The notes: generated by a model not told the origin, from the letters alone. 64,000 bases of DNA from an uncultured Chromatiales bacterium (GCA_964449305.1 CAYUYM010000001.1:32160-96159); one strand, 5' to 3'. Numbered from the stretch's first letter, positions 1,267 through 54,533 are shown. Made by a program: numbers and translations.

Positions 1267-1280
1267 GGCAGCTCTCCGGG

Positions 1281-3539: not shown

Positions 3540-3595
3540 GGATTCTGCTTCGTTTTGGTACAACACTGGAAAAATGAATCTACGAAACTCTCCGC

Positions 3596-4261: not shown

Positions 4262-4443
4262 GCCGCCTCCATTCCGTCCAGACAGTGGGGCTCGATTCCG
4301 GGTTACCTGGTCGCCCCCGGCTGGGTGTAAAATATTGCGCCGCAGCGAATGTCCATATTTTGGTATTTTCGAAACGATGTGCCGGTGTCGCATCGGCAGT
4401 GCGCCGATGCCGCCCTCGCCGGCCGTGCAAAGAGCGCGATTCC

Positions 4444-6371: not shown

Positions 6372-6392
6372 CATCCACGGGCGGTACGCGGA

Positions 6393-7157: not shown

Positions 7158-7175
7158 GCGCTCCGCTGCACGTCG

Positions 7176-7871: not shown

Positions 7872-7948
7872 GATGTCACTGTGGTTTTTTGCGGAATCTA
7901 TCCACGGCCGAAGGCAATCGCAAGGAAAAACGCCGACACCATGCGGAG

Positions 7949-8629: not shown

Positions 8630-8721
8630 GGTGGACGTGGCACCTCCAATGGTCGGACAAGGACACCCCACGAAGTTACGCAATCCCCGCCGGTCTCCAA
8701 GGGGGCTGCAGGATCCTGTCA

Positions 8722-8765
8722 GGACCTATAGGTCTTCTTAGACTTCTTAGAAGACCTATAGGTCC
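8722..8765. repeat. AT-rich composite palindrome in the divergent esterase/lpdA promoter region
   Basis: The sequence is GGACCTATAGGTC-TTCTTAGA-C-TTCTTAGA-AGACCTATAGGTCC. Perfect 17-bp inverted arms surround a 10-nt core that is a direct 8-mer repeat. Each arm contains the self-palindrome CCTATAGG. The element is about 40% GC in a roughly 67% GC genome. It is flanked by G5 and C7 runs, with CTGCAGGATCC immediately upstream. Confidence 0.6.
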
Positions 8766-8902
8766 CCCCCTCCTGTTGCCGCTTGCCGTTCTTTGCTATT
8801 TTGCGGCTTCCCATCACGCCGCCTCCGCCCCGCGTTGGGAACCCACAGCGTCATTTCGTGCAGAAACAATACCACCGATCACAGAAGGAGTCCACCATCA
8901 CC

Positions 8903-10300
8903 ATGGCACAATCATTCGATGTCGTCGTCGTCGGAGCCGGCCCGGGAGGGTACGTCGCCGCCATTCGCGCCGCCCAGCTCGGCTTGAAAACCGCCTGCGT
9001 CGAGGCGAAACACCTCGGAGGCATCTGCCTCAACTGGGGCTGCATCCCCACAAAATCCCTCCTGAAAAATGCCGAGGCATGGGATACCGTCATGCACGCC
9101 CAGGACTATGGCATCTCCGTGGAGAACCCGACCTTCGATTTCTCCAAAGTGATCCAGCGCAGCCGCGGCATCGCCGATCGTATGTCCAAGGGTGTCGCCT
9201 TCCTCTTCAAAAAATACGGCGTCACCCACATCCAGGGCCATGGCCGCCTCCTCGACCAGGGGCGCCTCGGGGTGTTCGACAGGGAGGGGACGCAGCTCGA
9301 TGAGATCTCCGCACCCCACATCATCCTCGCCACCGGCGCCCGCCCCCGCGCCATCCCCGGCACGCAGTTCGATGGGAAACGCGTCATCTCTTACTTCGAG
9401 GCCATGACTCTCGATCACGTCCCACAATCGCTCATCGTCCTCGGCGCAGGCGCCATCGGTGTCGAGTTCGCCTGGTTCTACAGCGTGTTCGGCGCCAAGG
9501 TCACCATCGTCGAGATGATGCCCAACCTCCTCCCGATCGAGGATGAGGAGGTCTCCAAGGAACTCGAACGCAGCTATCGCAAACGGAAGATCGCGGCGAA
9601 AACCTCCTCCAAGGTCGAATCCATCGAGGTGCTCGACGAGGGCGTCCGTGTCACGGTGTCCAACGACAAGGGCACGGAGGTGCTCGAGGCGGAACTGGCG
9701 CTCATGTCCGTGGGCATCCAGGGCAACGTCGAACACCTCGGGCTCGAAACGCTCGGCATCACCCTTGAGCGTGGCTATGTGAAGGTCGACGAGTTCTATC
9801 GCACCAATGTCCCGGGCGTCTACGCCATCGGCGATCTGGTCGGCCCTCCCTGGCTCGCCCACGTGGCATCGGCCGAGGGCATCACCTGTGTCGAGGCCCT
9901 TGCCGGGAAGACGGTGTCCCCCATCGATTATGGCAACATCCCCGGCTGCACCTACTGCCAGCCGCAGGTCGCAAGCGTCGGCCTCACTGAGCGCAAGGCG
10001 CGTGAGGCGGGCTACGAGGTCAGGGTCGGGAAGTTCCCGTTCACGGCGTCGGGCAAGGCCGTGGCCATCGGCCATACCGACGGCTTCGTCAAGATGGTCT
10101 TCGATGCACAGTACGGACAGCTTCTCGGCGTCCACATCATCGGCCCCGAAGCCACCGAGCTCATCGCCGAGGCGGCCCTCGCCCGCACCTTCGAATCCAC
10201 CGAACACGAGCTCATCAAGACCATCCACGCCCATCCGACCCTTTCGGAGGCGATGATGGAGGCCGCTGCAGTGGCCTTTGGTGAGTCGGTGAACTTCTGA
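8903..10300 (+). CDS. lpdA: Dihydrolipoyl dehydrogenase (E3)
   Basis: The protein starts MAQSFDVVVVGAGPGGY, the FAD-binding motif. It has the redox-active disulfide GGICLNWGCIPTK and a C-terminal HAHPTLSE interface motif. An aggag RBS lies 12 nt upstream. Confidence 0.9.
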   Translation: MAQSFDVVVVGAGPGGYVAAIRAAQLGLKTACVEAKHLGGICLNWGCIPTKSLLKNAEAWDTVMHAQDYGISVENPTFDFSKVIQRSRGIADRMSKGVAFLFKKYGVTHIQGHGRLLDQGRLGVFDREGTQLDEISAPHIILATGARPRAIPGTQFDGKRVISYFEAMTLDHVPQSLIVLGAGAIGVEFAWFYSVFGAKVTIVEMMPNLLPIEDEEVSKELERSYRKRKIAAKTSSKVESIEVLDEGVRVTVSNDKGTEVLEAELALMSVGIQGNVEHLGLETLGITLERGYVKVDEFYRTNVPGVYAIGDLVGPPWLAHVASAEGITCVEALAGKTVSPIDYGNIPGCTYCQPQVASVGLTERKAREAGYEVRVGKFPFTASGKAVAIGHTDGFVKMVFDAQYGQLLGVHIIGPEATELIAEAALARTFESTEHELIKTIHAHPTLSEAMMEAAAVAFGESVNF

Positions 10301-11079
10301 TGCCCGTTACGCCTCCCCGCATCACCGGCATGATCCACCTCCTGCCCCTGCCCGGCGCCCCCGGGTTCGCCGGCAGCGTGGACGCCGTCCGCGAGCGCGC
10401 CCTCGCCGATGCCGCCGCGCTCGCGGAGGCCGGTGTCGACGCCCTCATGGTGGAAAACTATGGCGATGTGCCGTTTCACCGCGAGGCTCGCGATCCCGTC
10501 ACCGTCGCGGTCATGACGCACCTCGTGGCGGAGCTCCGCCGCGAGGTGCCCCTGCCGCTCGGCGTCCAAGTCCTGCGCAATGATGCCATCGCGGCCCTCG
10601 CCATCGCCGCGGCCACCGGGGCGGCATTCATCCGCGTCAACGTGCTGTCCGGTGTCATGGTCTCCGATCAGGGGATCATCGAGGGCTGTGCCGCGGAACT
10701 CATGCGCCTCCGCGCCCGCATCGCGCCTGATATCGCCGTGTGGGCCGACGTCTTCGTCAAACATGCAACACCCCTAGGCTCCGTGTCACTCGCCGATGCC
10801 GTCCGCGACACCGTGGAACGTGGCTGCGCTGATGCCGTCATCGTGTCCGGCACGGCCACGGGCAGTCCGGCGGATCCGGACGACATCCGCACGGTGCGTT
10901 CCGCCTCCACGCGCCCTGTCATCATCGGCAGCGGAGTCACGGAGGATTCTGTCGCCGACCTCCTCGCCATGGCCGATGCCGTCATCGTCGGAACCGCAGT
11001 GAAACGCGATGGCATCACCACCAATCCTGTCGATCCTGTCCGTGCACGCGCCGTCGTCGCACGTGCGTCCACTCGCTGA
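10300..11079 (+). CDS. BtpA/SgcQ family protein (TIM-barrel, PF03437-like)
   Basis: The N-terminus ITGMIHLLPLPGAPGF... matches the BtpA family. Its start codon overlaps the lpdA stop (atga). Confidence 0.65.
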   Translation: MPVTPPRITGMIHLLPLPGAPGFAGSVDAVRERALADAAALAEAGVDALMVENYGDVPFHREARDPVTVAVMTHLVAELRREVPLPLGVQVLRNDAIAALAIAAATGAAFIRVNVLSGVMVSDQGIIEGCAAELMRLRARIAPDIAVWADVFVKHATPLGSVSLADAVRDTVERGCADAVIVSGTATGSPADPDDIRTVRSASTRPVIIGSGVTEDSVADLLAMADAVIVGTAVKRDGITTNPVDPVRARAVVARASTR

Positions 11080-11093
11080 TCTCCTTCAATCCG

Positions 11094-12935
11094 TCATCGT
11101 TCGTCCGTGCCCTCCTTCACACCGGTGAGGACGATCTCCACACGCCTGTTGTATTGCTGCATGCGATCGGGGCGCGCGTTGGAGTTGTCGATCTTCCCGA
11201 GCGGCAGCGTCGAGAGGCGGTAGGGCGAGACGCGGTTGCGTGTGAGATGCTCCGCCGCCTTCTCCGCCCGTTGGCGCGACAGGGCCAGATTGAAGGTTTC
11301 ATCGCCCACCTCGTCGGCATAGCCGCGGATGTCGGCCACAAAGTTGGGATGCTGCAGAAGATGCTGCGCCACCGCCTCGAGCGTGGTGCGCGCCTCCTCC
11401 GACAACGTCGTCTGTCCGTATTCAAAGAAGATCATCGTCACAACCACATCCGGAATGCGCCGGCTGTTTCCGGCCTCCCTCGCCATGTTCAGAAGCTGCT
11501 GTGCCCGCTTGAATGCGGCATCCACCTTCCCCGCAATGTACTCGGCACGCTCCTCCTCCGGGATCTCCGGTGGCGCGGCCGACATGGCGCCACGGACAAT
11601 GGCGTAATCCGGCGTCGGGTGACGCTCCGACGCTGCCTCAGCGCGCCCGCCACCTCCAGCCGGTGTGCGAGGCGGTTGACTCGGTGTCATCGCCCCCGGG
11701 ACGGCGTACGTCCCAAGTGTCACCGACCCGGTCGTGTCAGTGGAGGAGATGTGCGCCTCGCCGCGGTCGATCATCTCCCGCACTCCCTCGGATTTGTCTC
11801 CGAACATGGGGGCGACATCGGCCAGATGGAACTCCGCACTCGTGGTCGAGGCATCCAGCGTCTCCTGCCTCACCACCGACACGGTCACCGTGTAATGCCC
11901 GTTGGGAAGCCCTCCGGCAAATTCCGGGGCCAATCCCAGTTCATCGAAATCCACGATCCCGCCGGCGTCGAGTTCCTCGTCCATCGCGCGGAGAGTGTGG
12001 TCCCGCATCGATTGGGCCACGACGGCGTTGTCCTTCATCAGGAGGAATCGCACCTGTGTTTCCATGTCGCCGTCACCGGTCTTCTGGATGCGGAGACGCA
12101 GCTTCTCTGGTGAGGATCGCAACTGACTGAACGAGTGGAACGGGCTGATCACCATCGAGGATTGAAGGCGCTGCTCCACCTGCCCGGGTGCGTCTGCCAC
12201 GCTCCCATCCCTGTCAGCGGCCTCCTCGTGTTCCCTGTCCCTGTCTCGTTCACCTGGACCTGTCGGGGCATCATGGGAGCCGGCCGAACCCAGGCGCCAG
12301 CTGATGCCGAAGGACATCGATGAATATCCATCATGATCGCTGCCGGAGACCAGGCCATCCAATCCGTCTGTGTCCGTGAACTGGGAGGCGAAGACGATGC
12401 GCATGTCAAGTGCCGACGTGAGCGGACGCAGCACACCGAGCGAAAACCCCACCGTCGGAATGATCTGTGCATCATCACGCACGGCTGCCACGCCAAGGTG
12501 CTTCACCGTCTTCTTGATGAAGAGGCCGGTGTTGAGCTGCACGAATGGGGCGAGATCCCACAGCCCCAGACCTGCAAGGCGCCACTGCGGAGAGGCCATC
12601 ACACCCCCGAACATGGCCTGGTAGACAAAGTAGTTGCCGGTCAGATCCACGCTGCGTGTGCTGAACAGCCCGCCATGCACCATGCCGTTCAGGGCGAATC
12701 CTGATCCCAGGGGATACTCGACAAACGCCGCCAGGATCGGCTGCATGCGGTAGTTGCTGAATGCCCTCGTGAAGTCGTTCCCGGCCACGTTGGCGCCGGC
12801 CATCACCCCGATCGTCAGGGGTTCCTCTGCGGTGGCGTTCAATGCCCCCTGCGCATGGACGGGCATGGCTGCCCCGAGAACGAGCAGGAGCACGATGGCG
12901 AGTCGGGGTGGCATGGAGCGTGCGTGTCTGGTCAT
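11094..12935 (-). CDS. OmpA-family outer membrane protein (beta-barrel N-domain + C-terminal OmpA peptidoglycan-binding domain)
   Basis: It has a signal peptide, MTRHARSMPPRLAIVLLLVLGAAMPVHAQ. The C-terminus FNLALSRQRAEKAAEHL...NRRVEIVL is the OmpA_C motif. An acidic linker, GPGERDRDREHEE, precedes it. Confidence 0.75.
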   Translation of the reverse strand: MTRHARSMPPRLAIVLLLVLGAAMPVHAQGALNATAEEPLTIGVMAGANVAGNDFTRAFSNYRMQPILAAFVEYPLGSGFALNGMVHGGLFSTRSVDLTGNYFVYQAMFGGVMASPQWRLAGLGLWDLAPFVQLNTGLFIKKTVKHLGVAAVRDDAQIIPTVGFSLGVLRPLTSALDMRIVFASQFTDTDGLDGLVSGSDHDGYSSMSFGISWRLGSAGSHDAPTGPGERDRDREHEEAADRDGSVADAPGQVEQRLQSSMVISPFHSFSQLRSSPEKLRLRIQKTGDGDMETQVRFLLMKDNAVVAQSMRDHTLRAMDEELDAGGIVDFDELGLAPEFAGGLPNGHYTVTVSVVRQETLDASTTSAEFHLADVAPMFGDKSEGVREMIDRGEAHISSTDTTGSVTLGTYAVPGAMTPSQPPRTPAGGGGRAEAASERHPTPDYAIVRGAMSAAPPEIPEEERAEYIAGKVDAAFKRAQQLLNMAREAGNSRRIPDVVVTMIFFEYGQTTLSEEARTTLEAVAQHLLQHPNFVADIRGYADEVGDETFNLALSRQRAEKAAEHLTRNRVSPYRLSTLPLGKIDNSNARPDRMQQYNRRVEIVLTGVKEGTDER

Positions 12936-13013: not shown

Positions 13014-15429
13014 TCACTTCAACACGATCAGTCGTTTCGACAGCACAACACCGTTCGTCGTCAACACGTACTGATACGTGCCGGCGGGAACCGAGCGCCC
13101 ACGGGCGTCGAGCCCATCCCACTGGATGAAGTGCATGCCCGCACCCTGGCTCTGGTTGATGAGTGTGCGGACCAGTGCGCCCTTGAGATCAAACACATCG
13201 AGCTTCACCACGGCGCTGGCCGGAAGGTTGTAACCGATGTTTGTCATCGCATTGCGCGAGCGGGAGAACGGGTTCGGGAAGTTTTGCTGCAGGTCCACGC
13301 TCGTCGGCTGGGCGGGAGTCTCCGCCGCGGTCGGGTCGTAGACGTACTCGACGATGGTCTTGCCAGCGTTGATGGGCACGTCCTTCACGGTCTCCATGTT
13401 GCCGAGCGGCCAGCGGATTGTCACGGAGTCGATCTTCGCCGCAGTGCCGATGCCGATGTGCTGCGCATAGGGTTCCTGCACACCCGCGCCCTTGCCGGCC
13501 ACGATCTGCCGTGTGTAGATGGTGGAACCGACATGCACCTTCAACTGTGCGCCAAGGGCGAAAACGTTCGCCGTTTTCGAGGTCAGCGTCAGTGTGGTGG
13601 AATTGCCGATACCGGTCAGCTGGTTCTTGAAGAGCTTCAGTCCATCGGGCATCACAACACACAGATCAAGCTTGCCGTCGTTGTCGAAATCCACCCATGC
13701 CACGCTGCGCGCGTTCTCAAGGCCGACGCCCGCCGCATATGTCACATCGACAAACGTGTTGTCGGGATTCTGCATGTAGAGCTGGGAGGCGTAGCATTTC
13801 TCATTCGTGGTGATGTAGAAATCCAGCAACCCGTCGTTGTTGAAATCACCCCAGGCCACGTCGCCGTTCATCGCACGATACCCAGGACCGCCGTTGATGA
13901 CGCTCGCAAAGGTGTAGTCCGGCGATCCGATGTTGCGGAACAGGGTCGTCATATCGCTGTATGGTGTGCGATACGGATACGCCACAGACGACTTGAGAAT
14001 GTCCATCATCCCGTCGTTGTCGTAGTCGCCGAAATCACAGCCCATGGTGTTGCCATAGTACCCGGGATAGCTGGATTTGCGCTCGCCCTCAAGGCCGACC
14101 ACACGCGCCACATTGGCAAGATCACCAGTGCCCTGGTTCTGGAACACGAGGTCCGGCTGCAGACGGTCGTTGCCCATGAACAGGTCCATGTCGCCATCAT
14201 CGTCGAAATCAACCCACTGGACGCAGCGCGCCGGACGCCAACCTTCGATCTGCTGCGACTGGTTGTACGGATTCCTGCCCCACGGACCGCGCAGATACCC
14301 GCCGAGGTAGGCCTTCTTCTGATCGGAGAAATGCCCGTCCTGTGTGTTCACGTACAGATAGGCCTCCCATGCGGCACCCGGAATGAGGGCGGAATCCGAG
14401 GGGTTGGCCGGGTTCTTCATGTACATGTATTCGCCGTTTGCCAGCACGAAATCGGGATACTTGTCGCTGTCGTAATCGGCAAACGACATGGCCGTGGAGT
14501 TGACTGCCGGCATGAACCCGGGATTCTGATCCAGCGTGAAATTGCCCTTGTCGTTGAGGTAGAGCAGATTCGCCGGCATGCAGACGATGTCCAGATCGCC
14601 ATCGTTGTCCACATCGACAAACATCTCCATGTCCGATCCCTTGGTGAAGCCCACCGTTGTTGCCACATCGGTGAACGTGCCATTGCCGTTGTTTCTGTAG
14701 AGGTGATCGCCCCACAGGCAGTCCTGGAGCCCGTCGGCGTCGTAATCCGCCCACGACACCTTGGCCCCCCCCGACCTTGGAGGTGAGCCCTGCGGTCTTG
14801 GCCACATCCTTGAACGACTTGGCCGTGCTCTCGTTGTAGTATTCTGCGGCGACGCCCATGTACCAATTGTTGATCGCCATGCCGGTGGCGAAATGCGAAC
14901 CGAAGCCATAGGCCTGTGCCTGGGGATCATACTGGGCGAACATCGACGTGTACATGGTGTCCCCGTCGGATGTGGCGCCGGTCGGGGTCTGCGTAACGCG
15001 GTCCATCCGCAGCTTCACATTTGATCCGCGCGGCATCACGCCCACGAAGAACGGTGTCGGGTTCGGAAAGTCCAGCGGTGTCGTGAACGTGATCTTCATC
15101 AGCTTGTCCGTCGCCTTCGGCACGAACATCCGGATGGGTGTGATGATGGGCATCAGAAAATACGGATAGGGTGCGCCGCCTTCCTCACCGAAGAGGATGA
15201 CGTCGACCGAGTCGCCATTGTTCTGATCGGTGACGAACCAAAACGAAAGCTCCGTGATTTTTGCTGGTGCCGTGGTCTGGTAGCGGGAGATGCAGATGGC
15301 ATTGGCAGGCTGGTTGAGTATCACATAATCCGCCTCCGCCTGATAATGCTCCAGGTTGACCTTGCGCTGCGCGTCAGCGGACACGGTCAGAAGAGCCATC
15401 AATACAAACACGGGAATCAATTTCTTCAT
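13014..15429 (-). pseudogene. CRTAC1/ASPIC-UnbV-like FG-GAP repeat protein with T9SS C-terminal domain, frameshifted by a 16-nt insertion (G8 run) near 14767-14774
   Basis: Two track ORFs, 14209..15429 and 13014..14930, are consecutive parts of one protein. The upstream part begins with the signal peptide MKKLIPVFVLMALLTVSADA. The downstream part contains FG-GAP/VCBS repeats such as DFDDDGDMDLF and DFNNDGLLDF, and the CTD NFPNPFSRS...VLSKRLIVLK. Removing ttggccccccccgacc restores a continuous reading ...GLTSKVSWADYDADG... Confidence 0.6.
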
Positions 15430-18716: not shown

Positions 18717-18749
18717 GTAAAAAGAAGCCCGCCGATGTCGGCGGGCTTC
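18708..18749 (-). terminator. Rho-independent terminator of T9SS paralog A
   Basis: On the minus strand the sequence reads GCCCGCCGACATCGGCGGGC followed by TTCTTTTTACCAAAAAAAA. It lies 38 nt downstream of the stop at 18787. Confidence 0.75.
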
Positions 18750-18786: not shown

Positions 18787-20235
18787 CTATTTCACCATCG
18801 AGATCTTGATGTTCTTGCTGAACACCATGCCGGATTCCTGGCCTGCTGCGGTGAGCGTCACCATGTACGTGCCGGTCGGGAGTTCCGAGGCGTCGAACGT
18901 GATGCGGTGATCACCGGCATTGCGGACTTCGCGGCAGAGCACCGCCACCACCTTGCCGCTCATGTTCATCACCTCGAGCGTCACGTCGGACTTCTCGGAG
19001 ATGGCGAAGCGGATGGTGGTCGACGGGTTGAAGGGATTCGGATAGGCCTGGAGCAGATCGAAGTCCTCGACCGGGGCAGCCTTCGGCGTGCCATGCGAGC
19101 GGATCCAGTTCAGCTTGATGCCCACATAGTCGAAGTTGTTGATGAAGCCGTTGCCGTCGGCATCCATGTAGCAACCATCCGGCGTGTTCCACGGAATGCC
19201 CGCCTGTGCCTCCCAGATGAGGTAGGTCAGCGGGTTCGTCGATGCGTTCGCGTTGTAGCGCGCTGGGCCCACCAGCCAGTCCTGGCGGAGGTTGGCATCG
19301 AAGATGTACTTGTTGAGGGACTTCCTGTCGCCGTAGTTCACCACGCCGTCATTGTTCACGTCACCCGGCCACACGACGCAGGGCACCGTGTTCGGATTGA
19401 CCACCATCGTCTGCTGGTTCACCTTCACGTCCACCATGGCATTGCAGATGTCCATCACATTGAAGGTCACTTCCACCCGGTAGTAGCCCACCGGAAGGGA
19501 GGCGGTCGACACTTGGTATGTGCCCGTCACCGTTCCGCCGTTGAAGGCGACGTTGGTGTTCTCGGTCTTCACGAGTGTTCCGGTCGGTGTGAAGAGCTTG
19601 ATGGTCATGGCAACGTTGAATGTGCCATAGGGGCGGCTGATGGTGTAGTTGATGTTGAGGGGATTCGGCTTCTCGGCAAAGGCATCCGTGGTGAAGCTCA
19701 CCTGCGTCGCCGGGTCGGTGCAGATGTTGCGGATCTCGATTTCGCGGAAGTTCGGGTTGGACGTCTGCCCCACCGGCGCCATCACCCAGTTGGTGATGCG
19801 CATCTTTGTCGTGGTCTGCGGAGCGAACTGCAACACGCGGAGATAATCGGTGTACACAGTGGTGCTCCACGTGTAAACGGTGACCCATGCCGAACCGGTC
19901 CAGATCTGGATGTCGGAGCCGGCAAGATAGCGGTTGCTGATGCCACCGTAGTACAACGTGATCTCACCGAAGGTCACGGGAGCAGCCCATTCAAACATGA
20001 TCCAGTACGTGCCACCCGTGTGTGTGCCACCGGAAGTCCAGCCCCAGGGAGTGGAGCCGGCCGCAGCGATGACGCCGTCATTGTAGTTCGTGGGTGCGTA
20101 GGTTGTGGTGCCGCCACCGCTGTGCGTGCAGGTGGCACTCAGGGCGATGTTGGGCGTGGGGGATTGTGCCTGGGCAGACAGCGAGACGAATGCCAGCAGG
20201 AACACAGACAGAAGCAGAGTCGCGATTTTGGTCAT
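18787..20235 (-). CDS. T9SS-secreted protein, paralog A: discoidin (F5/8 type C)-like N-domain + double dockerin-like Ca-binding module + Por_Secre_tail CTD
   Basis: It has a signal peptide, MTKIATLLLSVFLLAFVSLSAQA. The segment NIALSATCTHSGG...YWIMFEWAAPVTFGEITLYY...IQIWTGSAWVTV is discoidin-like. The dockerin-like motifs are PGDVNNDGVVNYGDR and DADGNGFINNFD. The CTD is AYPNPFNPSTTIRF...KISMVK. Confidence 0.75.
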   Translation of the reverse strand: MTKIATLLLSVFLLAFVSLSAQAQSPTPNIALSATCTHSGGGTTTYAPTNYNDGVIAAAGSTPWGWTSGGTHTGGTYWIMFEWAAPVTFGEITLYYGGISNRYLAGSDIQIWTGSAWVTVYTWSTTVYTDYLRVLQFAPQTTTKMRITNWVMAPVGQTSNPNFREIEIRNICTDPATQVSFTTDAFAEKPNPLNINYTISRPYGTFNVAMTIKLFTPTGTLVKTENTNVAFNGGTVTGTYQVSTASLPVGYYRVEVTFNVMDICNAMVDVKVNQQTMVVNPNTVPCVVWPGDVNNDGVVNYGDRKSLNKYIFDANLRQDWLVGPARYNANASTNPLTYLIWEAQAGIPWNTPDGCYMDADGNGFINNFDYVGIKLNWIRSHGTPKAAPVEDFDLLQAYPNPFNPSTTIRFAISEKSDVTLEVMNMSGKVVAVLCREVRNAGDHRITFDASELPTGTYMVTLTAAGQESGMVFSKNIKISMVK

Positions 20236-20565
20236 ACTGTCCTCGATGCGTATGTGATTGGGAGAAAGATGTGACGTGCAGAGGATCTCTTTTACCACCA
20301 TGCTCCAAACATATCGACGATTTTTTTTTGTGGCAAGTGATTTCGCCCAATTCTCCAAGAAATGAGCAAAAAATCCGTCGTGTTTTTTCACGTCGCTGAT
20401 AGCGAACTTGCGTGTGTGAAGATTTTTCACTATGATCACCACGACACGTGCCAAGCGGTTCGCGCAAATCTCATGATTTACACGCGGATCCCAAAGCTTG
20501 GAGCATCACATACGGCATCGCGATCAAGTAATCCATCAACTGATACACCAATGCACGGAGTAGTC

Positions 20566-22131
20566 ATGACAAGTGCCACCAGGGGAAGGAGCATCGCCCT
20601 TCTCGCTCTGTCTCTCGTTCTTCTCGTCCTCTTGTTCCCAGCCGGAAACACATTCGCCCAGGCCGGCTGCCCGCTGACGCTGAATGTCCCCATGCAGTCC
20701 TCCAACGGCCAGTCGGGTGTGACGCTCGACATCACGGCGATCAAGTCCACCTCCATCTGCCGTTTCTGGATCCAGCCCTCCACCACAGGGTCGCATACTG
20801 TCCAGATCTGGAAGCACCCGAATGGCGTGGTCAACGCCAATGACGGCCTCTGGCAGTACATCGGCACCGCCACCTTCAACATGCCCACCACGGGCATCAA
20901 CTATGAGATCCCGGTGGACGTGAACGTCCTCCTTGATCCCGGGCAGAAGATGGGCTTTGCGATCTTCTCAAGCTCCACCATCCGCTATTCGACAGTATCC
21001 GCACCGCTCTTCTATGCCGACAGCTACATCAACGTGAACGTGAACCAGTATGGCATCACGGGTTCCACCACACCACCCAGCACCACGGCATGGAGCTTCG
21101 GTTTCTTCCCGCGCGGCCTTGTGGGACAGGTGCAATACAAGGAAGGCTGCTTCTTCCCGCCGGGCATCGCCTCCAGCTCGCTTGCCGACGCTGCGGGCAA
21201 CCCCATCGCCTACGCCGAGATTCCCAGCAATGTGTTCATCAAATACGGCCTCGACTACCCCGCTGGTGCATCCAATTTCACGCTCACGGTGACCTTCAAG
21301 AAGGTGGGTGTCGCCAGCCCAGCACCGCCGAGCACGATGTTCACCACCACCATCAACGTCATCAAGCAGGCTGGTCAGACGTTGAGCGGGCTCGCCCAGG
21401 TCAGCCTCCCGGCGACCCTGCAGCCGGGCTTCTATACCATCGAGTATACAGGCAACTCACAGAACTCCTGCGGCAACTACCAGGATTACACGCTCCCGAG
21501 CCAGGGTCTCATGCTCGTCAACCCGGGAACTGCACCCTGCGTCGTGTGGCCGGGTGATGCGGACAACGACACCCGCGTCACGTATGCCGATCGCGCCTAC
21601 ATCAACAGCTACATCTTCAACGCCGGCCAGCGCACAACCTGGCTCCAGGGTCCGGCTCGCTATATGGCCAACGCCTCCCCGATGGCCTATCTCAATTGGA
21701 CACCGCAGGCCTCCGTGCCCTGGCAGACCCCTGATGGTTGCTATGTGGACTGCGATGGCAATGGCGTCATCAACAACTTCGACCTCATCGCTGTCAAGCT
21801 CAACTGGATGAAGAACCATCCCCCGAAGGCGGGTGCCAACATCGCCGTCATGACCTTCGACATGACGCAGAACTATCCGAATCCCTTCAATCCCAGCACA
21901 CGGATCAGCTGCAGCGTTCCCGAACCCAGCATCGTGAAGCTCGTGGTCACCGACATGCTCGGCCGCACGGTGGCCACCCTTGTGGATGGACGTGTGGAGG
22001 CGGGGACATTTGAATCGCAGTTCGATGCCTCGTCGCTCAACAGCGGCAACTACATCGCCACCGTGGTGATGCAGGGCATCGAGTCCGGGCTCTCGTTCAG
22101 CAAGACCATCAAGATGACCCTGATGAAGTGA
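20566..22131 (+). CDS. T9SS-secreted protein, paralog B: unknown N-domain + same dockerin-like module + CTD
   Basis: It has a signal peptide, MTSATRGRSIALLALSLVLLVLLFPAGNTFAQA. The C-terminal 200 aa align with paralogs A and C: PCVVWPGDADNDTRVTYADR, WLQGPARY, DGCYVDCDGNGVINNFD and NYPNPFNPSTRIS...KMTLMK. Confidence 0.75.
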   Translation: MTSATRGRSIALLALSLVLLVLLFPAGNTFAQAGCPLTLNVPMQSSNGQSGVTLDITAIKSTSICRFWIQPSTTGSHTVQIWKHPNGVVNANDGLWQYIGTATFNMPTTGINYEIPVDVNVLLDPGQKMGFAIFSSSTIRYSTVSAPLFYADSYINVNVNQYGITGSTTPPSTTAWSFGFFPRGLVGQVQYKEGCFFPPGIASSSLADAAGNPIAYAEIPSNVFIKYGLDYPAGASNFTLTVTFKKVGVASPAPPSTMFTTTINVIKQAGQTLSGLAQVSLPATLQPGFYTIEYTGNSQNSCGNYQDYTLPSQGLMLVNPGTAPCVVWPGDADNDTRVTYADRAYINSYIFNAGQRTTWLQGPARYMANASPMAYLNWTPQASVPWQTPDGCYVDCDGNGVINNFDLIAVKLNWMKNHPPKAGANIAVMTFDMTQNYPNPFNPSTRISCSVPEPSIVKLVVTDMLGRTVATLVDGRVEAGTFESQFDASSLNSGNYIATVVMQGIESGLSFSKTIKMTLMK

Positions 22132-22171
22132 TCGACTGCTGTCCCGCTCCGCGGGGCAGCCCACAATTGGT

Positions 22172-22209
22172 GGGGCATGGTGGAAACGCCATGCCCCATT
22201 GCTTTCTCC
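22172..22209 (+). terminator. Rho-independent terminator after paralog B
   Basis: The hairpin is GGGGCATGG-tggaaacg-CCATGCCCC, a 9-bp perfect stem, followed by ATTGCTTTCTCC. Confidence 0.65.
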
Positions 22210-22335
22210 CGGCCGTCTCCCCCCCCGCGATAAAAAGGCGCATTGGCCACCTTGCATATCCGTAATCGACACGCTATCTTTCCGACGTCATCTTTACGCA
22301 GCAAAAAACCATTCACCATAAGGAAAGGAGATTCC

Positions 22336-24060
22336 ATGAATTTGCGTACATCATCCAGAGTGCTGCTTGCAGCCTTGGTGCTGATGTTCGTTGCATCGAA
22401 CACCAGCTCTGCACAGGTGTCGCTGATGGCGTTCTCATCCACGCAGGGCACGTGGGTCCCCATCACAGCCGGCACACAGATCAATCCGGGATATGTGGAT
22501 GACAACTCGTTCCTCATCCCCATCGGTTTCACCTTCAACTTCGGTGGCAACAGCTACACCGATGTGTGGGTCAACTCAAACGGCGGTCTGTCCTTCGGTG
22601 CGTCCCAGACCTACGACTACCTTCCACTGGCCTACCCGTCTGCGGGCGTCACCGGCTCCATCGTGGCCATCGGTGGCGATCTTCTTGCGAACAATGCCGG
22701 GGACCTCATGTATGAACTCACGGGCCCGGCGGGCAACCGTGTGCTCACCGTGCAGTACACGGCGTTCGACTGGTACTCCTCACAGTTCTACGGCATGACC
22801 AACCAGTGGACCTGGCAGTTCAAACTCTACGAAAAGGGCGCCGTCGAAATCGTCTGGGGACCGTTCGTTCAGAGCCCTGTCTACACCATCTATGGTTGGG
22901 AGACCGGCATCCGTGGCGCCTCCTCCACCGACTTCCACCGCCGCGTGGTCGACTATGCCGTTGTCGGCAGCACCTGGGCGAATTCCACCCAGGCCCCGAC
23001 CAACGATCCGTACACGTACTACACATCCATCGGTCCGAACCTCATCCCTGCAGCAGGTCTCACCTATCGCTGGGCCTGCAACATCCCCGACAATGCGGTG
23101 CAGCTCGAGGTCCTCAACATGAACGACCAGCCGGCGACGGCCGTGGAGCTCCCGGGCAGCGTCAAGGTTGCCTACAACATCACCTACCCCGATCTCGGTG
23201 GCCCGATCGACCTCACTGTGAAGTTCTATCGCGTCGGGCAGGCGGTGCCGGAATACGTGTATGGCCCGGTCAGTCTCGTCAAGGCGCCGCTCACACCGCT
23301 TGTGGGCACGCTCGTCATCGCTCTTCCGACCTCCCTGCCCATGAGCTGGTATCGTGTGGATGTGGTGGTCAGCATGGCCAACCAATGCAACATCATCAGC
23401 GACAATCTCTTCACTCCCGGTGCCCTCCTCATCTACCCACAGGGGACGCCTGTGTGCAAGGTCTGGCCGGGCGACGTCAACAACGACGGCCTCGTGAACT
23501 ACGGTGACCGCAAGTCACTCAACAGCTACATCTACGACGCGAACATGCGCACCTCGTGGTTGAATGGCTACGCCAGGTACCGCATCAGCGCAAATCCGCT
23601 CTCCTACACCGAGTGGATCGAACAGGCAGGCCTCCCGTGGGGCAATGTCTGGAACGGCATCAATGCCTGCTACGTCGATGCCGATGGCAACGGGTACATC
23701 AACAACTTCGACTATGTCGCCATCAAGCTGAACTGGATGCGCTCCCATAGCGTGCCGAAACAGGGCGACCAGTCGCTGCTGTCCTTCGACATGGTTCAGA
23801 ACTACCCGAATCCGTTCAACCCGACCACCCGCATCCAGTACTCCACGCCGGAGAAGAGCCAGGTCAGCCTGGTGGTGACCGACATGATCGGCCGCACGAT
23901 TGCCACGCTGGTGAACGGAAACGTCACCGCCGGCGTGCATGACGTGTCCTTCGATGCCTCCAGCCTCACCAGTGGCACCTACATCGCCACGGTGAACATG
24001 ATCGGACTGGAATCGGGGCTCACCTTCTCACGAACCATGAAGATGCAGTTCGTGAAGTGA
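22336..24060 (+). CDS. T9SS-secreted protein, paralog C: unknown N-domain + dockerin-like module + CTD
   Basis: An aggaaaggag sequence lies upstream. The signal peptide is MNLRTSSRVLLAALVLMFVASNTSSAQ. The shared module includes PVCKVWPGDVNNDGLVNYGDRKSLNSYIYDAN, DGNGYINNFD and the CTD NYPNPFNPTTRIQYS...KMQFVK. Confidence 0.75.
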   Translation: MNLRTSSRVLLAALVLMFVASNTSSAQVSLMAFSSTQGTWVPITAGTQINPGYVDDNSFLIPIGFTFNFGGNSYTDVWVNSNGGLSFGASQTYDYLPLAYPSAGVTGSIVAIGGDLLANNAGDLMYELTGPAGNRVLTVQYTAFDWYSSQFYGMTNQWTWQFKLYEKGAVEIVWGPFVQSPVYTIYGWETGIRGASSTDFHRRVVDYAVVGSTWANSTQAPTNDPYTYYTSIGPNLIPAAGLTYRWACNIPDNAVQLEVLNMNDQPATAVELPGSVKVAYNITYPDLGGPIDLTVKFYRVGQAVPEYVYGPVSLVKAPLTPLVGTLVIALPTSLPMSWYRVDVVVSMANQCNIISDNLFTPGALLIYPQGTPVCKVWPGDVNNDGLVNYGDRKSLNSYIYDANMRTSWLNGYARYRISANPLSYTEWIEQAGLPWGNVWNGINACYVDADGNGYINNFDYVAIKLNWMRSHSVPKQGDQSLLSFDMVQNYPNPFNPTTRIQYSTPEKSQVSLVVTDMIGRTIATLVNGNVTAGVHDVSFDASSLTSGTYIATVNMIGLESGLTFSRTMKMQFVK

Positions 24061-27143: not shown

Positions 27144-27500
27144 ATGCTTGAAACCTACATCCCCATTTTTGTCCTTCTCGGCGTCGCCGTCATTTTCGGC
27201 ATCGTCTCGGTGAACATCTCCTGGCTTCTCGGCCCCCAGCGACCATATCGGGAGAAGATGACAACCTACGAAAGCGGCATGCAGCCTATCCGCTCCGCGC
27301 ATGAACGCTTCTCGGTGAAGTACTATCTCGTGGCCATGCTCTTCATCTTGTTCGACATCGAAATCGTGTTCATGTATCCCTGGGCGGTGCAGTACCGCAA
27401 CCTTGGGATGATCGGCTTCGTGGAGATGGTGGCGTTCCTGGGGATTCTCTTTGTCGGGTATCTCCACGTTCTTGGAAAGGGGGCATTGAAATGGGACTAG
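27144..27500 (+). CDS. nuoA: NADH-quinone oxidoreductase subunit A
   Basis: The 118-aa protein has 3 TM segments and the NuoA-typical motif [23 protein letters not shown]. Confidence 0.9.
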
Positions 27501-27997
27501 AAAGCACGCTCGGTGACGGCTTCTTCACGACCTCGATCGACGCGTTGGTGGCGTGGGCCCGCAAGAGTTCACTGTGGCCCATGCCGATGGGCATCTCCTG
27601 CTGCGCCATCGAGCTGATGTCGTCCGGTGATCCCCGGCACGACATCGCCCGCTTCGGCATGGAGGTGATGCGCTTCTCCCCGCGACAGTCCGACGTGCTC
27701 GTCGTTGCCGGCACGGTGACCTACAAGATGGCGAAGGTGGTGCGGAAGATCTACGACCAGATGGCCGAGCCCCGCTGGGTGGTGGCCATGGGCGCATGCT
27801 CCTCCTCCGGAGGCATGTTCCGCAGCTATTCCGTGGTGCAGGGCATCGACCAGTTCCTGCCTGTGGATGTGTTCGTCTCCGGCTGCCCCCCCCGCCCCGA
27901 CAACCTTCTCCATGCCATGATGGAGCTGCAGAAGAAGGTCGGAAGGTCGAGCGTTCTCGAGTATCAAAACAGTCCGATGGACGCTGCCGACCGCTAG
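27491..27997 (+). CDS. nuoB: NADH-quinone oxidoreductase subunit B
   Basis: It carries the N2 cluster ligands: [13 protein letters not shown] and GCPPRP. Confidence 0.9.
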
Positions 27998-28052
27998 GCG
28001 GCTGCGCCATCCCCCGGGTTCCCCCGGCCCATTCAGGAGAGTGATGTGACCC

Positions 28053-28544
28053 ATGAAACCCATCCTTGACCACGTGATCGACCAGATGCGGACCGAATTC
28101 GGCCCCGCCGTCATTGATGTCACCGAATTCCGTGACGATGTGATGGTGACCGTGGAGCGCGACCGCATCGTGGACATCGTCCGCTTCCTGCGCGACAATC
28201 CCCTCTGCCCGTTTCCCCTGTGCGAGGATGTGTTCGGCATCGATCAGGACCGCCAGCCCGCGCGGTTCGAGGTGAACTACCATTTCTTTTCCATCGAGCA
28301 CAAGGTGCGCATCCACCTCAAGATCCGTGTCGAGGAAAAACCCTGTGAGGCACCCTCCATCACGGGTCTCTTCCCCGGCGCCGACTGGTACGAGCGCGAG
28401 ACCTGGGACATGTACGGCATCACCTTCATCGGGCATCCCGATCTGCGACGCGCCTACATGCCCGAGGAATACGTGCATCATCCGCTGCGAAAGGATTTCC
28501 CCATGATGGGGATCCCCGGATCCATCCCGCTTCCCAAACGATAG
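28053..28544 (+). CDS. nuoC: NADH-quinone oxidoreductase subunit C
   Basis: The 163-aa protein contains the NuoC 30-kDa-family motif ERETWDMYGITFIGHPDLRR. Confidence 0.85.
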   Translation: MKPILDHVIDQMRTEFGPAVIDVTEFRDDVMVTVERDRIVDIVRFLRDNPLCPFPLCEDVFGIDQDRQPARFEVNYHFFSIEHKVRIHLKIRVEEKPCEAPSITGLFPGADWYERETWDMYGITFIGHPDLRRAYMPEEYVHHPLRKDFPMMGIPGSIPLPKR

Positions 28545-28553
28545 GCTGTCCGC

Positions 28554-29852
28554 ATGAACACCACCGATCCCATGGATGTCTTTGACAGACCCGTTTCCAT
28601 CACCAGCCTGACGAGCGAGGAGAAGCAGTCGGCGATTCTCAAATCCCTGCTGTCCCAGCATTCCGACGTGTCCCGTGAGGATCCGTTGGAGAATGAGATG
28701 ATCCTCAACATGGGGCCGTCCCACCCGGCCACCCATGGCGTGCTCCGCCTGCTGCTGCGCATCGACGGCGAGACGGTGACCGGCTGCGTGCCCGAGCTGG
28801 GCTATCTCCACCGCGGCTATGAGAAGATGGCGGAGAACGAGACCTATCACGAGTTCCTGCCACACACCGACCGCCTCGACTATCTGCAGCCGATGCACAA
28901 CAACGTCGCCTACATGCTCGCCGTCGAGAAGCTCTGCGGCATCGAGGCGCCTCCCCGCGCACAGTTCATCCGCACCATCGTCAGCGAGCTCGCACGCATC
29001 TCCTCGCACTTCGTCGCCTTCGGCACCATGACCATGGATGTGGGCGCGATGACACTCCTGCTGTGGGCCTTCCGCGAACGCGAGAAGATCCACGACATCT
29101 TTGATCTCATCTGTGGCGCACGCTTCACGACCAGCTACACCCGCATCGGCGGTGTGGCGCAGGACATCAGCCAGGAGTCCATCGATGCGATCCGCGCCTT
29201 TCTCGTGCAGCTTCCGGAGAAGATCGACGAATGCGAACGCCTCATCAACCGGAACCGCATCTTCTTCGATCGCTGCCGCAACATCGGTGTGATCAGCGCG
29301 GAGGAGGCCCTGGCGATCGGCTTCACCGGACCCAACCTCCGCGGCAGCGGTGTGGCCATGGATCTGCGCCGCGACACCCCCTACCTTGTCTACGATCAGC
29401 TCGACTTCGATGTGATCACCGAGAAGGAGGGGGATTCCCTCGCGCGGTACTACGTCCGCCTCCGCGAGATGCGCGAGAGCATGAAGATCCTCCACCAGTG
29501 CCTCGACATGCTGCCGGCCGGGCCCGTCCACGCACGTGAACCGAAGAAGGTGCTGCCGCGCAAGGAGCGCATCTACACGCGCATGGAGGAGCTGATCCAC
29601 GACTTCATGATCATCAACTTCGGCGTCGAGCCCCCGGCGGGCGAGGTATACCATGCGGTGGAATCGTCCAAGGGCCAGCTCGGTTTCCACATCGTGAGCC
29701 GCGGCGAGGGGCACCCCTGGCGCATGAAGATCCGCTCCCCGTCATACTGCAACATTCAGGCCCTGCCGCAGCTCATCAAGGGCCATCTCATCTCGGATGT
29801 GGTCGCCATCATCGGCAGCATCGACCCGGTCATGGGCGAAGCCGACAAATAA
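28554..29852 (+). CDS. nuoD: NADH-quinone oxidoreductase subunit D
   Basis: The 49-kDa-family motifs are present: NMGPSHPATHGVLRL, RIGGV and the C-terminus IDPVMGEADK. Confidence 0.9.
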   Translation: MNTTDPMDVFDRPVSITSLTSEEKQSAILKSLLSQHSDVSREDPLENEMILNMGPSHPATHGVLRLLLRIDGETVTGCVPELGYLHRGYEKMAENETYHEFLPHTDRLDYLQPMHNNVAYMLAVEKLCGIEAPPRAQFIRTIVSELARISSHFVAFGTMTMDVGAMTLLLWAFREREKIHDIFDLICGARFTTSYTRIGGVAQDISQESIDAIRAFLVQLPEKIDECERLINRNRIFFDRCRNIGVISAEEALAIGFTGPNLRGSGVAMDLRRDTPYLVYDQLDFDVITEKEGDSLARYYVRLREMRESMKILHQCLDMLPAGPVHAREPKKVLPRKERIYTRMEELIHDFMIINFGVEPPAGEVYHAVESSKGQLGFHIVSRGEGHPWRMKIRSPSYCNIQALPQLIKGHLISDVVAIIGSIDPVMGEADK

Positions 29853-29867
29853 CGGACAGAGAATCCC

Positions 29868-30356
29868 ATGTTCAACGAAGAAGAACTCACGAAGGTCGCG
29901 GAAATCCGCTCGCATTATCCCACGAATCATGGCGCCGTCATGGGCGTGCTTCACCTGGTGCAGGACAAGTTCGGCTTCATCTCGGGAGAGGCCATCGAGC
30001 AGGTGGCGGCGCTCCTCGACATCCCACCGGAGCATGTCTACGGCGTTGTCACGTTCTATGAGATGTACCACGAACACCCGATGGGGCGGTACAACCTCCA
30101 GGTCTGCACGAACGTTTCCTGCATGCTTCGCGGCTCCGATGCCATCGTGGAGACGGTGCGCCACCGCCTGGGCATCGGCTTCGGTGAGACAACACCCGAC
30201 GGCCTCTTCACGCTGCACGAGGTGGAATGCCTCGGTGCCTGCGGCGGTGCTCCGGCCATCTCCGTCTGGAAAACCTATCACGAGAACATGACGCCCGAGA
30301 AGATGAACGCCATCATCGACGAGCTTCTTGCCAGCCACCAACCCCGCACGCCATGA
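29868..30356 (+). CDS. nuoE: NADH-quinone oxidoreductase subunit E
   Basis: The 2Fe-2S ligand Cys pattern is present: C..C in VCTNVSCMLRG and CLGACGGAP. Confidence 0.85.
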   Translation: MFNEEELTKVAEIRSHYPTNHGAVMGVLHLVQDKFGFISGEAIEQVAALLDIPPEHVYGVVTFYEMYHEHPMGRYNLQVCTNVSCMLRGSDAIVETVRHRLGIGFGETTPDGLFTLHEVECLGACGGAPAISVWKTYHENMTPEKMNAIIDELLASHQPRTP

Positions 30357-31624
30357 TCGACTACCAACCCCTCATCCTCCGGAACATCCCCGATCTGCAC
30401 ACCCTCGACGTGTACGAGGCGAACGGCGGCTATGGCGCCCTTCGCAAGGCGCTGGGCATGACGCGGGACGCGATCATCGCCGAGATCAAGACGTCGGGCC
30501 TCCGCGGTCGCGGCGGCGCCGCCGTCCCCACCGGCCTCAAGTGGACCTTCATGCCGAAGGAGGGGGACAAGCCCCGCTACCTTTGTGTGAACGGTGACGA
30601 GAGCGAGCCCGGCTCATTCAAGGACCGGCAGATCTTCGAGTTCAATCCGCATCTCATGATCGAGGGCATCCTCATCGCGGGCTGGACGCTCGGCCTGAAG
30701 GCGGCCTACATCTACATCCGCGGCGAGTACGAACAGTTCGTGCGCATGGTGGAGAAGGCCATCGCCGATGCATATGCCCGCGGGTACATCGGTCCCCGCA
30801 TGCGCGAAACGCTCGGCTGCGATTTCTCGATGGATATCCATGTCCACCGGGGTGCCGGGGCCTACATCTGCGGTGAGGAATCGTCGCTCATGAATTCCAT
30901 CGAGGGGCGGCGACCGTATCCCCGCGTCAAGCCGCCCTTCCCAGCGCAGTACGGCCTCTGGGGTTGCCCCACCACCATCAACAACGTCGAGACCATGGCG
31001 AACATCCCGCTCATCATCGGGCGGGGCGGTGAATGGTACTCGAAGATCGGCGCGGAGAAGCATCCCGGCCCCATTCTCTACGGCATCTCGGGCCATGTGA
31101 ACAAGCCCGGCGTGTATGAACTGCCCACGGGCATGCTTCTCACCGAGCTCATCCACGACGTGGCCGGCGGTGTGCCAGGCAACAAGCGGATCAAGATGGT
31201 CATCCCCGGTGGAAGTTCCATGCCTCCGCTCCGCGGCGATCAGCTCGAAGGGGTGCGCATGGACGCTGAATCCCTCAAGGCCGTCGGGTCCGCCATCGGC
31301 ACCGCGGGCATCATGGTGATGGACGAGGACACGGATCTGGTGCGTGTGCTCGCGCGCATCACCCACTTCTACTGGATCGAATCCTGCGGGCAGTGCACGC
31401 CCTGCCGCGAGGGCACGGGGTGGATGCTGAAGATTCTCAAGCGCCTCAGCCGTGGCGAGGGACGCATCGAGGATCTCGATCTGCTCGTGAGCATCGCCAA
31501 CAACATCGAGGGCAACACCGTCTGCGCGCTCGGCGACGCCGCGGCCTGGCCGGTGAAGTTCACCATCCAGCGGCTTCGCGAGGAGTTTGAGGCACACATC
31601 CGCAGCGGTGCGGCGGCCGGGTGA
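30353..31624 (+). CDS. nuoF: NADH-quinone oxidoreductase subunit F
   Basis: It has the FMN/NADH-binding site GAGAYICGEES. The N3 4Fe-4S motif is ESCGQCTPCREG. The start codon overlaps the nuoE stop (atga). Confidence 0.9.
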   Translation: MIDYQPLILRNIPDLHTLDVYEANGGYGALRKALGMTRDAIIAEIKTSGLRGRGGAAVPTGLKWTFMPKEGDKPRYLCVNGDESEPGSFKDRQIFEFNPHLMIEGILIAGWTLGLKAAYIYIRGEYEQFVRMVEKAIADAYARGYIGPRMRETLGCDFSMDIHVHRGAGAYICGEESSLMNSIEGRRPYPRVKPPFPAQYGLWGCPTTINNVETMANIPLIIGRGGEWYSKIGAEKHPGPILYGISGHVNKPGVYELPTGMLLTELIHDVAGGVPGNKRIKMVIPGGSSMPPLRGDQLEGVRMDAESLKAVGSAIGTAGIMVMDEDTDLVRVLARITHFYWIESCGQCTPCREGTGWMLKILKRLSRGEGRIEDLDLLVSIANNIEGNTVCALGDAAAWPVKFTIQRLREEFEAHIRSGAAAG

Positions 31625-32256
31625 TGGCCGGAAAGCTCTGCCCCAAGATCATCTTCGAAGGCACACGCCTGACGCACAAGACCGACCTCGCCTTCGCCTG
31701 CAACGAGCATCCGCGCATCGTGGGCCCGCGGCGCTATCGCTACCATTCACCGCTCATCTCGGGCGAGTGGTGCGCCTTCACCAACGTGCCATGGGGCCGG
31801 GGGCTCATCAACTTCCGGAGGGAGGAGGAGGCCCGTGCGATGGAGACCTACGACACCTGGTGCCGCCTCTTCGAGCTCCAGCGCTACTATTCGTGGATCA
31901 TCGACCGCTTCCACATCTCCACCATGATGCACCAGCAGCTCCATGAGGGACGGACCTACGACTTCACCCACGTCGAGGAGCGCCTTGCCTCCCTGGGATT
32001 CCGCATCGTCTTCTGCCGGCGTGATCCCGGCACCTTTGCCGCCGCCCGGACGGAGCGCCTGCGCGTGTCAGGCAGACCGTCACAATATGACGATCTCGAT
32101 GTGTTCCTTCGTGAACAGGAACTCTTCCAGACGCTGCTCGGGCGGTCACGCCTTCCCGTGCTCACCCTCGATGTGAGCAATGGCGACATCCCCCGCCTGG
32201 CCGATGCCGTGGCCGACTGGATGGAGGCGACGGGCGGCCTGATCATGCCCGACTGA
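31621..32256 (+). CDS. Hypothetical protein co-transcribed with nuoA-F (no recognised domain)
   Basis: GC3 is very high, so the ORF is real. The start codon overlaps the nuoF stop. No nuoG follows it. No sequence signature was recognised. Confidence 0.5.
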   Translation: MMAGKLCPKIIFEGTRLTHKTDLAFACNEHPRIVGPRRYRYHSPLISGEWCAFTNVPWGRGLINFRREEEARAMETYDTWCRLFELQRYYSWIIDRFHISTMMHQQLHEGRTYDFTHVEERLASLGFRIVFCRRDPGTFAAARTERLRVSGRPSQYDDLDVFLREQELFQTLLGRSRLPVLTLDVSNGDIPRLADAVADWMEATGGLIMPD

Positions 32257-36675: not shown

Positions 36676-36890
36676 AGGGATCCTGATGGTGAAGATGAAA
36701 CCACAGATGCAATCTGAAAAAATAGCTCACTGCAACGTGAAATCATACCATGGAAACAACGTGTCGGAGCGCGGTTGCCGGCCACTGTCAACTGTCCGAC
36801 ACATCCCGTATATTTTCCCGTCACTGCTCCGACGTGGCACGGTATTCGTCGGGCTGCCATGCACCCTTTCACTCCCTCGGACTCGCCGCC

Positions 36891-54466: not shown

Positions 54467-54533
54467 ACGATTCCCTTCCATGCCAACAACAGCCGGCCCT
54501 GAGTTCCATCGCCGCGGAACACCGCCGCACAGA

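Follow-up and report, generated by a model that had tools for sequence, protein, structure and literature searches.

How do three neighbouring proteins that differ at their N-termini come to end in the same tail, and what would that tail do? In this study, we address the question for three genes, A, B, and C, at positions 18787-24060 of a 64,000-nucleotide stretch of bacterial DNA (GCA_964449305.1, CAYUYM010000001.1:32160-96159), the whole of which we call the window. Their products are cargo of a type IX secretion system (T9SS), they carry dockerin-type calcium (Ca) loops within a modular cassette, and the array that they form occupies a genomic hot spot. We favor a model that treats the three genes as long-standing paralogs within a multigene T9SS cargo family, with different, probably ligand-binding heads mounted on one tail that docks to a shared partner, a reading to which we give about an even chance.

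A Shared Tail Beneath Variable Heads

The three open reading frames (ORFs) lie exactly where an earlier reading of this DNA from its sequence (the original prediction) had placed them, and A and B are, as it described, a divergent pair transcribed away from each other (table 1). It had also announced co-linear tails of roughly 200 residues. Co-linear they are, with 43-45% identity among A, B, and C (tblastn, E 1e-76 to 1e-86), but the shared block is longer, 310-337 amino acids (aa), and comprises an immunoglobulin-like (Ig-like) β-sandwich, a dockerin-type module of ~100 aa (101-105 aa), and a type A T9SS C-terminal domain (CTD). The Ig-like domain (~115-130 aa), conserved and upstream of the module, was absent from that account; together with the module, it carries the common cassette well beyond the 80-aa CTD. 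The quoted motifs are all found, PC(V/K)VWPGD, WLxGxARY, (G/A)CYxDxDGNGxINNFD, and KLNWxxxH, and the central claim of a constant C-terminal cassette beneath variable heads holds. In A, the module runs from Cys286 through Ca loop 1 (D292-D303), helix 1, an insert (WLxGPARY...WxxQxxxPW), Cys355, and Ca loop 2 (D358-D369) to helix 3 (KLNWxxxH); it thus opens with Cys followed by VWPGD, and the full motif string of the insert is WLxGPARY...NP..Y..W..Q...PW. Three copies of the module, and only three, occur in the window (tblastn).

Each protein begins with a Sec-type signal peptide, read from the sequence (A, MTKIATLLLSVFLLAFVSLSAQA; B, ...LLVLLFPAGNTFAQA; C, MNLRTSSRVLLAALVLMFVASNTSSAQ), and ends in a type A CTD that passes the curated cutoffs for PF18962 (27 bits) and for TIGR04183 (23 bits; table 1), which bears out the assignment of all three as T9SS cargo. 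B has other candidate starts: the longest ORF begins at 20362, and an in-frame ATG (MHGVVMTS...) lies 15 nucleotides (nt) before 20566, although the signal peptide starts immediately after 20566. The N-terminal heads do differ, as had been proposed, and are unalignable in a three-way alignment. The "discoidin-like" head ascribed to A, on the other hand, comes down to a weak, sub-threshold DUF7402 match (E 3.9e-4; 21 bits vs. a cutoff of 27); this head (residues 4-215) shares 43% identity with the N-terminal part of a beta-helix protein from another locus (L082, see below), to which it is fused there. Head profiles of B and C retrieved no relative in the PDB, and that of A a chance-level match only. 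Two copies of the C head are present in one relative, P0003, and across the family beta-helix/NosD, Laminin_G_3, and DUF7402 heads are recognizable, the majority being unknown.

Searched exhaustively with HMMER, 1.84 billion representative sequences yielded 598 proteins in two tiers, the narrow one with 41 representatives at 50% identity (~41 clusters), of which P0004 is identical to B. Word-index homologue searches gave just two (module alone) and four (40-sequence profile) sequences and were uninformative for the module family. None of 40 family members lacks the two module cysteines, which had been predicted to be invariant. Two more conserved cysteines reside in the Ig-like domain, and all four occur in 27 of 35 sequences, a pattern from which two disulfides are a reasonable inference. 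In the subgroup P0029-P0044 the first Ig-domain Cys is gone and some members gain a Cys in Ca loop 1 (DGSCNLSD), with four sequences keeping three conserved cysteines; disulfide pairing may thus have been rewired in this subgroup, possibly across domains. An AlphaFold 2 model of the Ig-like domain plus module (pLDDT 94.4, pTM 0.84) suggests that the two form a fixed arrangement.

A Dockerin-Type Module with a Conserved Insert

Apart from the CTD, Dockerin_1 (PF00404) is the sole domain match common to A, B, and C. This match is borderline, being found in all three proteins and in all three below the Pfam gathering threshold of 22.9 bits. Of ten relatives scanned singly, the narrow-tier members P0003 (23.4 bits) and P0036 (23.2 bits) lie above it, and 22 of the 41 narrow-family members match Dockerin_1 at E ≤ 1e-3 (best 2.1e-7). 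The two dockerin-like Ca loops of the original prediction are borne out, with positions 1, 3, 5, 6, 9, and 12 kept in both (loop 1, DVNNDGVVNYGD; loop 2, DADGNGFINNFD), in the arrangement that defines a dockerin repeat: ligands at 1, 3, 5, 9, and 12, and Gly at 6. Within the family, position 1 is retained in 39/40 members for loop 1 and 40/40 for loop 2, position 9 is Asn in 37/40 for both loops, and position 12 is Asp in both loops of all 40.

Profile searches of the PDB point the same way. With E below ~0.1, only dockerin-bearing cellulosomal chains were recovered (best 4dh2_B, E 6e-4), the similarity stemming mostly from loop 1 and helix 1; other matches were weak (overall E ~0.1-0.9), namely EF-loops of calmodulin and one S-layer protein. 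A Foldseek comparison of the module model with the PDB gave no significant match, the top-ranked one being a dockerin. Between the narrow tier and the broad, or parent, family, hhalign reports 99.9% probability (E 2e-32) over 82 columns that include the insert motifs GPxR, WxxQ, and PW. A canonical calmodulin-type EF-hand pair was rejected: the matches are weak and confined to loop 2 (E 0.1-0.8), and an entering E helix is missing, the predicted model showing strand or coil ahead of loop 1 and, ahead of loop 2, a helix of just 4 residues (72-75).

The repeats stand 64-68 residues apart because a conserved insert of ~44 aa separates them, whereas the matching profile positions in 1daq and 4dh2 are 32-34 residues apart. 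The "double dockerin" initially proposed is instead a single dockerin carrying this insert between its two repeats and, at 101-105 aa, it departs from the compact form of 60-70 aa with a spacing of ~33. Sequence-profile, transitive-homology, and predicted-fold evidence supports the dockerin-like nature of the module ahead of the CTD; in our reading, it is a genuine dockerin fold, single but divergent, and lies outside the canonical type I.

Two Tiers of a Wider Family

The broad tier, of roughly 550 or more clusters, contains a ~85-aa version of the module in mid-protein, 135-500 aa from the C-terminus and in some proteins in two copies, whereas in the narrow tier the end of the 100-aa module always falls ~100 aa from the C-terminus. 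Broad-tier members exceed the Dockerin_1 cutoff (24.9-42 bits) and bear Pfam Cohesin domains and T9SS CTDs. A cohesin-like domain is found in 67 of 92 such proteins, and in 59 cases the median gap between its end and the dockerin is 8 residues; a CTD motif is missing from the last 120 aa in 47 of the 92, fragments among them. In P0043, P0047, P0052, P0064, and about 60 others, a true cohesin is followed by an insert-bearing dockerin in one polypeptide, often as two tandem dyads and with a T9SS CTD. Such a short distance (8 residues) between cohesin and dockerin suggests that separate molecules assemble head to tail.

In the narrow tier, the slot that cohesin holds in the broad tier is occupied by the Ig-like domain. 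No sign that the latter is a degenerate cohesin (PF00963) was detected, with an hhalign probability of 0.1%, no Pfam match, and no PDB profile match. Among 16 paralogs from four genomes, identity is 61-69% in the module, 51-60% in the CTD, and 28-37% in the Ig-like domain, the heads being unalignable. The module is thus the best-conserved part, as expected of an independent domain under strong constraint.

Age and Genomic Setting of the Array

The nearest named relatives of the window GlmS are from Ignavibacteriae and Ignavibacteria metagenome-assembled genomes (MAGs; 79-80% identity), and the host appears to be an uncultured Ignavibacteria-like bacterium of the Fibrobacteres-Chlorobi-Bacteroidetes (FCB) group. 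In a related metagenomic contig, L081, GlmS is 86% identical and six cassette genes occupy 663-12463, among them the ortholog of B (L081_663, 61% identity). Window and contig share the order glmS, array, phosphoribosyltransferase, AMP-binding enzyme, nuo genes. The nuo (NADH dehydrogenase) cluster lies at 27144-32256 (+) behind the gene for the AMP-binding enzyme, and its conserved order in L081 confirms the synteny. An Ignavibacteria MAG (L084, GCA_016720835.1) carries three cassette genes beside glmS (3950-9995). Between glmS and the phosphoribosyltransferase gene lies a hot spot where the cassette genes vary in copy number, with three in the window, six in L081, and three in L084. The L083 and L085 assemblies stop at the glmS-flanking locus, within the first cassette gene, a break that the repeated tail has probably caused. 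The module is present in none of 80 loci retrieved by GlmS similarity, and at an unrelated locus, L082, four cassette genes have beta-helix heads.

Local amplification, as originally proposed, is evident in the tandem array, but it is old, since DNA similarity is 72-86% and in tracts of ≤132 nt. Recent gene conversion as the source of tail similarity was rejected because this level of identity is confined to short tracts. Module-specific concerted evolution was unsupported as well, the Ig-like domain and CTD having the same within- versus between-genome offset.

Elsewhere in the window secreted proteins are abundant. Four other T9SS cargo genes lack the module (table 1), and three of them match A, B, and C by tblastn solely through the CTD. 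A 930-aa ORF at 36750-39542 (+) has coding-like GC content at third codon positions and no Pfam match at E ≤ 0.01 in two scans. T9SS core genes are found ~30 kb from the cargo array, with PorV directly after the PorU-type gene (54426-59845).

Table 1. Genes A, B, and C, the Domains of Their Shared Cassette, and Other Features of the Window
Feature	Coordinates	Strand	Length or residues	Remarks
Gene A	18787-20235	-	482 aa	Signal peptide, weak DUF7402-like head, shared cassette
A, Ig-like β-sandwich	19390-19731	-	169-282	Conserved Cys172 and Cys264
A, dockerin-type module	19081-19389	-	283-385	Dockerin_1 18.8 bits
A, linker (~12 aa) and type A T9SS CTD	18790-19080	-		Pfam match at residues 398-467; PF18962 54.7 bits, TIGR04183 47.3 bits
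Gene B	20566-22131	+	521 aa	Signal peptide, head of unknown fold, cassette
B, Ig-like domain	21139-21528	+	192-321	From family alignments
B, dockerin-type module	21529-21831	+	322-422	Dockerin_1 19.4 bits
B, linker and T9SS CTD	21832-22131	+		PF18962 28.9 bits, TIGR04183 33.5 bits
Gene C	22336-24060	+	574 aa	Signal peptide, head of unknown fold, cassette
C, Ig-like domain	23068-23445	+	245-370
C, dockerin-type module	23446-23760	+	371-475	Insert 4 residues longer; Dockerin_1 20.2 bits
C, linker and T9SS CTD	23761-24060	+		PF18962 31.4 bits, TIGR04183 28.5 bits
Terminator-like hairpin	18724-18749	-		9 of the 11 stem base pairs G-C, with a T tail; 38 nt past the A stop; consensus scan only
Other T9SS cargo, module absent	13014-14930	-		FG-GAP/ASPIC head
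Other T9SS cargo, module absent	33385-36675	-		Lamin-tail, DUF5689, and PLD head
Other T9SS cargo, module absent	39667-42300	+		Sortilin/BNR head
Other T9SS cargo, module absent	59984-63208	+		M6-like and FG-GAP head
PorU-type T9SS sortase	54426-58550	+	1374 aa	Peptidase_C25 (E 1.7e-88), propeptide, own CTD
PorV, T9SS outer-membrane shuttle	58649-59845	+		PF19572, E 5.8e-31

A Model of Docking and Its Alternatives

In the model that we propose, the tail consists of an Ig-like β-sandwich packed on a dockerin-fold module that would bind two Ca2+, followed after ~12 residues by the CTD. Each protein would be exported by Sec and then passed through the T9SS via its CTD, a route that follows from domain membership and from the presence of PorU and PorV in the window. 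In the T9SS of Porphyromonas gingivalis type A CTDs are cut off by PorU, and the PorU-type sortase of the window is the enzyme expected to cleave those of A, B, and C. This cut would place the Ig-dockerin dyad at the C-terminus of the mature protein, nearest the cell, where dockerins lie in cellulosomal enzymes. With Ca2+ and probably two disulfides to stiffen it, the dyad could then act as a common docking or stalk element and bind one shared partner, not necessarily a classical cohesin, so keeping the heads on the cell surface. A single common partner is suggested by how strongly the module is conserved and by the putative recognition positions of helices 1 and 3, near-identical in the alignment of A, B, and C, as one would predict if they shared a partner. 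Comparison with the related genomes further shows that the heads diversified through duplication and domain shuffling at the glmS hot spot. A more elaborate version strikes us as unlikely: here the dyad would serve a partner-specific, non-covalent form of T9SS-coupled display, one plug fitting a non-cohesin receptor, with the insert and disulfide-stapled loops providing a new binding face and with an origin in tandem cohesin-dockerin dyads, themselves possibly capable of head-to-tail self-assembly.

Several observations weigh against docking. Cohesin was not found by Pfam among the 33 window ORFs, nor by a six-frame search with a cohesin-like hidden Markov model of the window and 85 loci (L001-L082, then L083-L085). 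The Dockerin_1 scores of A, B, and C fall short of the threshold (18.8-20.2 vs. 22.9 bits; E 7e-4 to 2e-3), and their loops are spaced by 66, 64, and 68 residues, respectively, instead of the canonical ~33. The usual cohesin-binding face could be masked by the insert or, as the high pTM may indicate, covered in cis by the Ig-like domain; the disulfides and the interdomain interface are themselves putative. Finally, module similarity within genomes does not rise above the expectation from recent duplication, given that the Ig-like domain and CTD are offset alike.

The chief rival to docking is a partnerless stalk, ahead of glycan binding and an extended CTD in likelihood. As a stalk, the dyad would be a passive, Ca2+- and disulfide-stabilized element or folding aid, with retention on the cell left to the covalent bond that normally follows CTD cleavage, a spacer that holds the head off the surface or keeps the cargo secretion-competent, comparable to the immunoglobulin superfamily domain that precedes the CTD in gingipains. 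We regard this as possible, if doubtful. It accords with the rigidity predicted for the dyad (pTM 0.84), with a module fixed ~100 aa from the C-terminus and immediately ahead of the CTD, and with the negative cohesin searches in the window and the 85 loci; many non-cellulosomal dockerins, as Peer and colleagues reportedly noted in 2009 (cited in PMC8542988), also lack a known partner. Yet the module outconserves the CTD and, by far, the Ig-like domain, beyond what a spacer needs, and conservation extends from the core and Ca ligands to residues of the surface helices. The parent-family module, moreover, sits 8 aa after a true cohesin, which ties the lineage to cohesin-dockerin biology.

That same parent family is difficult to reconcile with the view that the conserved block is merely an extended secretion signal recognized by the T9SS. 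The fixed place of the narrow-subfamily module beside the CTD would fit such a role, but in the parent family it lies far from the CTD, is sometimes present twice, and also occurs in the 47 of 92 proteins (some of them fragments) without a CTD motif; in addition, the module is modelled as a self-standing dockerin fold, and four other T9SS cargo proteins of the window have a CTD without it. We thus consider this explanation highly improbable. Somewhat better placed, though still quite improbable, is a Ca2+-dependent glycan binder that would anchor the cargo non-covalently to the envelope through a cell-surface polysaccharide, lipopolysaccharide, or environmental glycan. Two conserved Ca sites, the conserved insert aromatics W38, Y45, W59, and W67 (module numbering), and the polysaccharide biosynthesis genes of the window are compatible with this role; the Ca sites of dockerins, however, are structural and not ligand-binding, no similarity of the module to any carbohydrate-binding module was found, and its significant matches are all to protein-binding dockerins.

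Comparison with Known Systems

Dockerins are well understood in Gram-positive cellulosomes, and thousands of "non-cellulosomal" ones are without a known role; dockerin annotations are also known in Bacteroidota and other FCB bacteria. What the window adds is a sharply defined, strongly conserved dockerin subfamily, tied to the T9SS and placed on a multigene family with swappable heads at a variable hot spot. A literature search found no account of the insert-bearing, Cys-stapled subfamily, of the Ig-dockerin-CTD architecture, or of the parent cohesin-dockerin tandem dyads. If docking is true, these genes would show how surface proteins are organized in T9SS bacteria outside Bacteroidia, and the module would offer a compact, Ca-dependent, disulfide-stabilized tag for surface display. 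Should the more elaborate display version hold, cellulosome-like docking logic would have been re-invented in Gram-negative Ignavibacteria. Even as a stalk, the module would provide a useful annotation for genes that are now unnamed or labelled hypothetical.

Clostridial type I dockerins (PF00404; 2ccl_B, 6kg9_A, 4dh2_B) share with the window module the two loop-helix (F-hand) repeats, the Ca-ligand pattern, and, once the CTD is removed, the C-terminal place on proteins with varied heads. They measure 60-70 aa with repeats ~33 residues apart, as opposed to ~100 aa, a ~44-aa insert, and a spacing of 64-68 in the window module, which further differs in its invariant Cys before each loop, its asymmetric repeats, and its sub-threshold Pfam scores. 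Clostridial dockerins are also Sec-only proteins of Firmicutes, in contrast to the Gram-negative T9SS export seen here, where cohesin was not found in the window or the 85 loci. The X-module-dockerin (XDoc) dyads of type II and type III cohesin-dockerin systems (C. thermocellum CipA, R. flavefaciens CttA; 5g5d_B, 4iu2_B) resemble the window proteins in the Ig-like module immediately N-terminal to the dockerin, here predicted to form a rigid unit. In XDocs, too, the dockerin repeats are asymmetric, and the R. flavefaciens dockerin carries inserts. Nevertheless, the window proteins gave no sequence match to known X modules, and known XDocs anchor scaffoldins of Gram-positive cellulosomes.

Within the FCB group, a cellulosome-like system, itself only predicted, has been described in "Ca. 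Stygibacter" (Cloacimonadota; PMC8542988). It is alike in its dockerin-bearing secreted proteins and in surface attachment through a T9SS CTD, but there the dockerins are C-terminal on enzymes and the CTD belongs to a separate multi-cohesin scaffoldin, whereas in the window dockerin and CTD are on one polypeptide and a scaffoldin is not known. The parent family of FCB T9SS insert-bearing dockerins, annotated as Dockerin_1 only, shows homology over the whole module, insert included (VWPGDTNNDGxVN...GPxR...WxGQ...PW...YADANGDGxVN...NWGKTH), from the VWPGD start to the NW..H end, and frequently has a T9SS CTD. Its ~85-aa module is without the Cys pair and lies in mid-protein, in 59 cases with a true cohesin within ~8 aa upstream. 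The window subfamily, conversely, has two extra insertions of ~8 aa, replaces the cohesin with an unrelated Ig-like domain, and always abuts the CTD.

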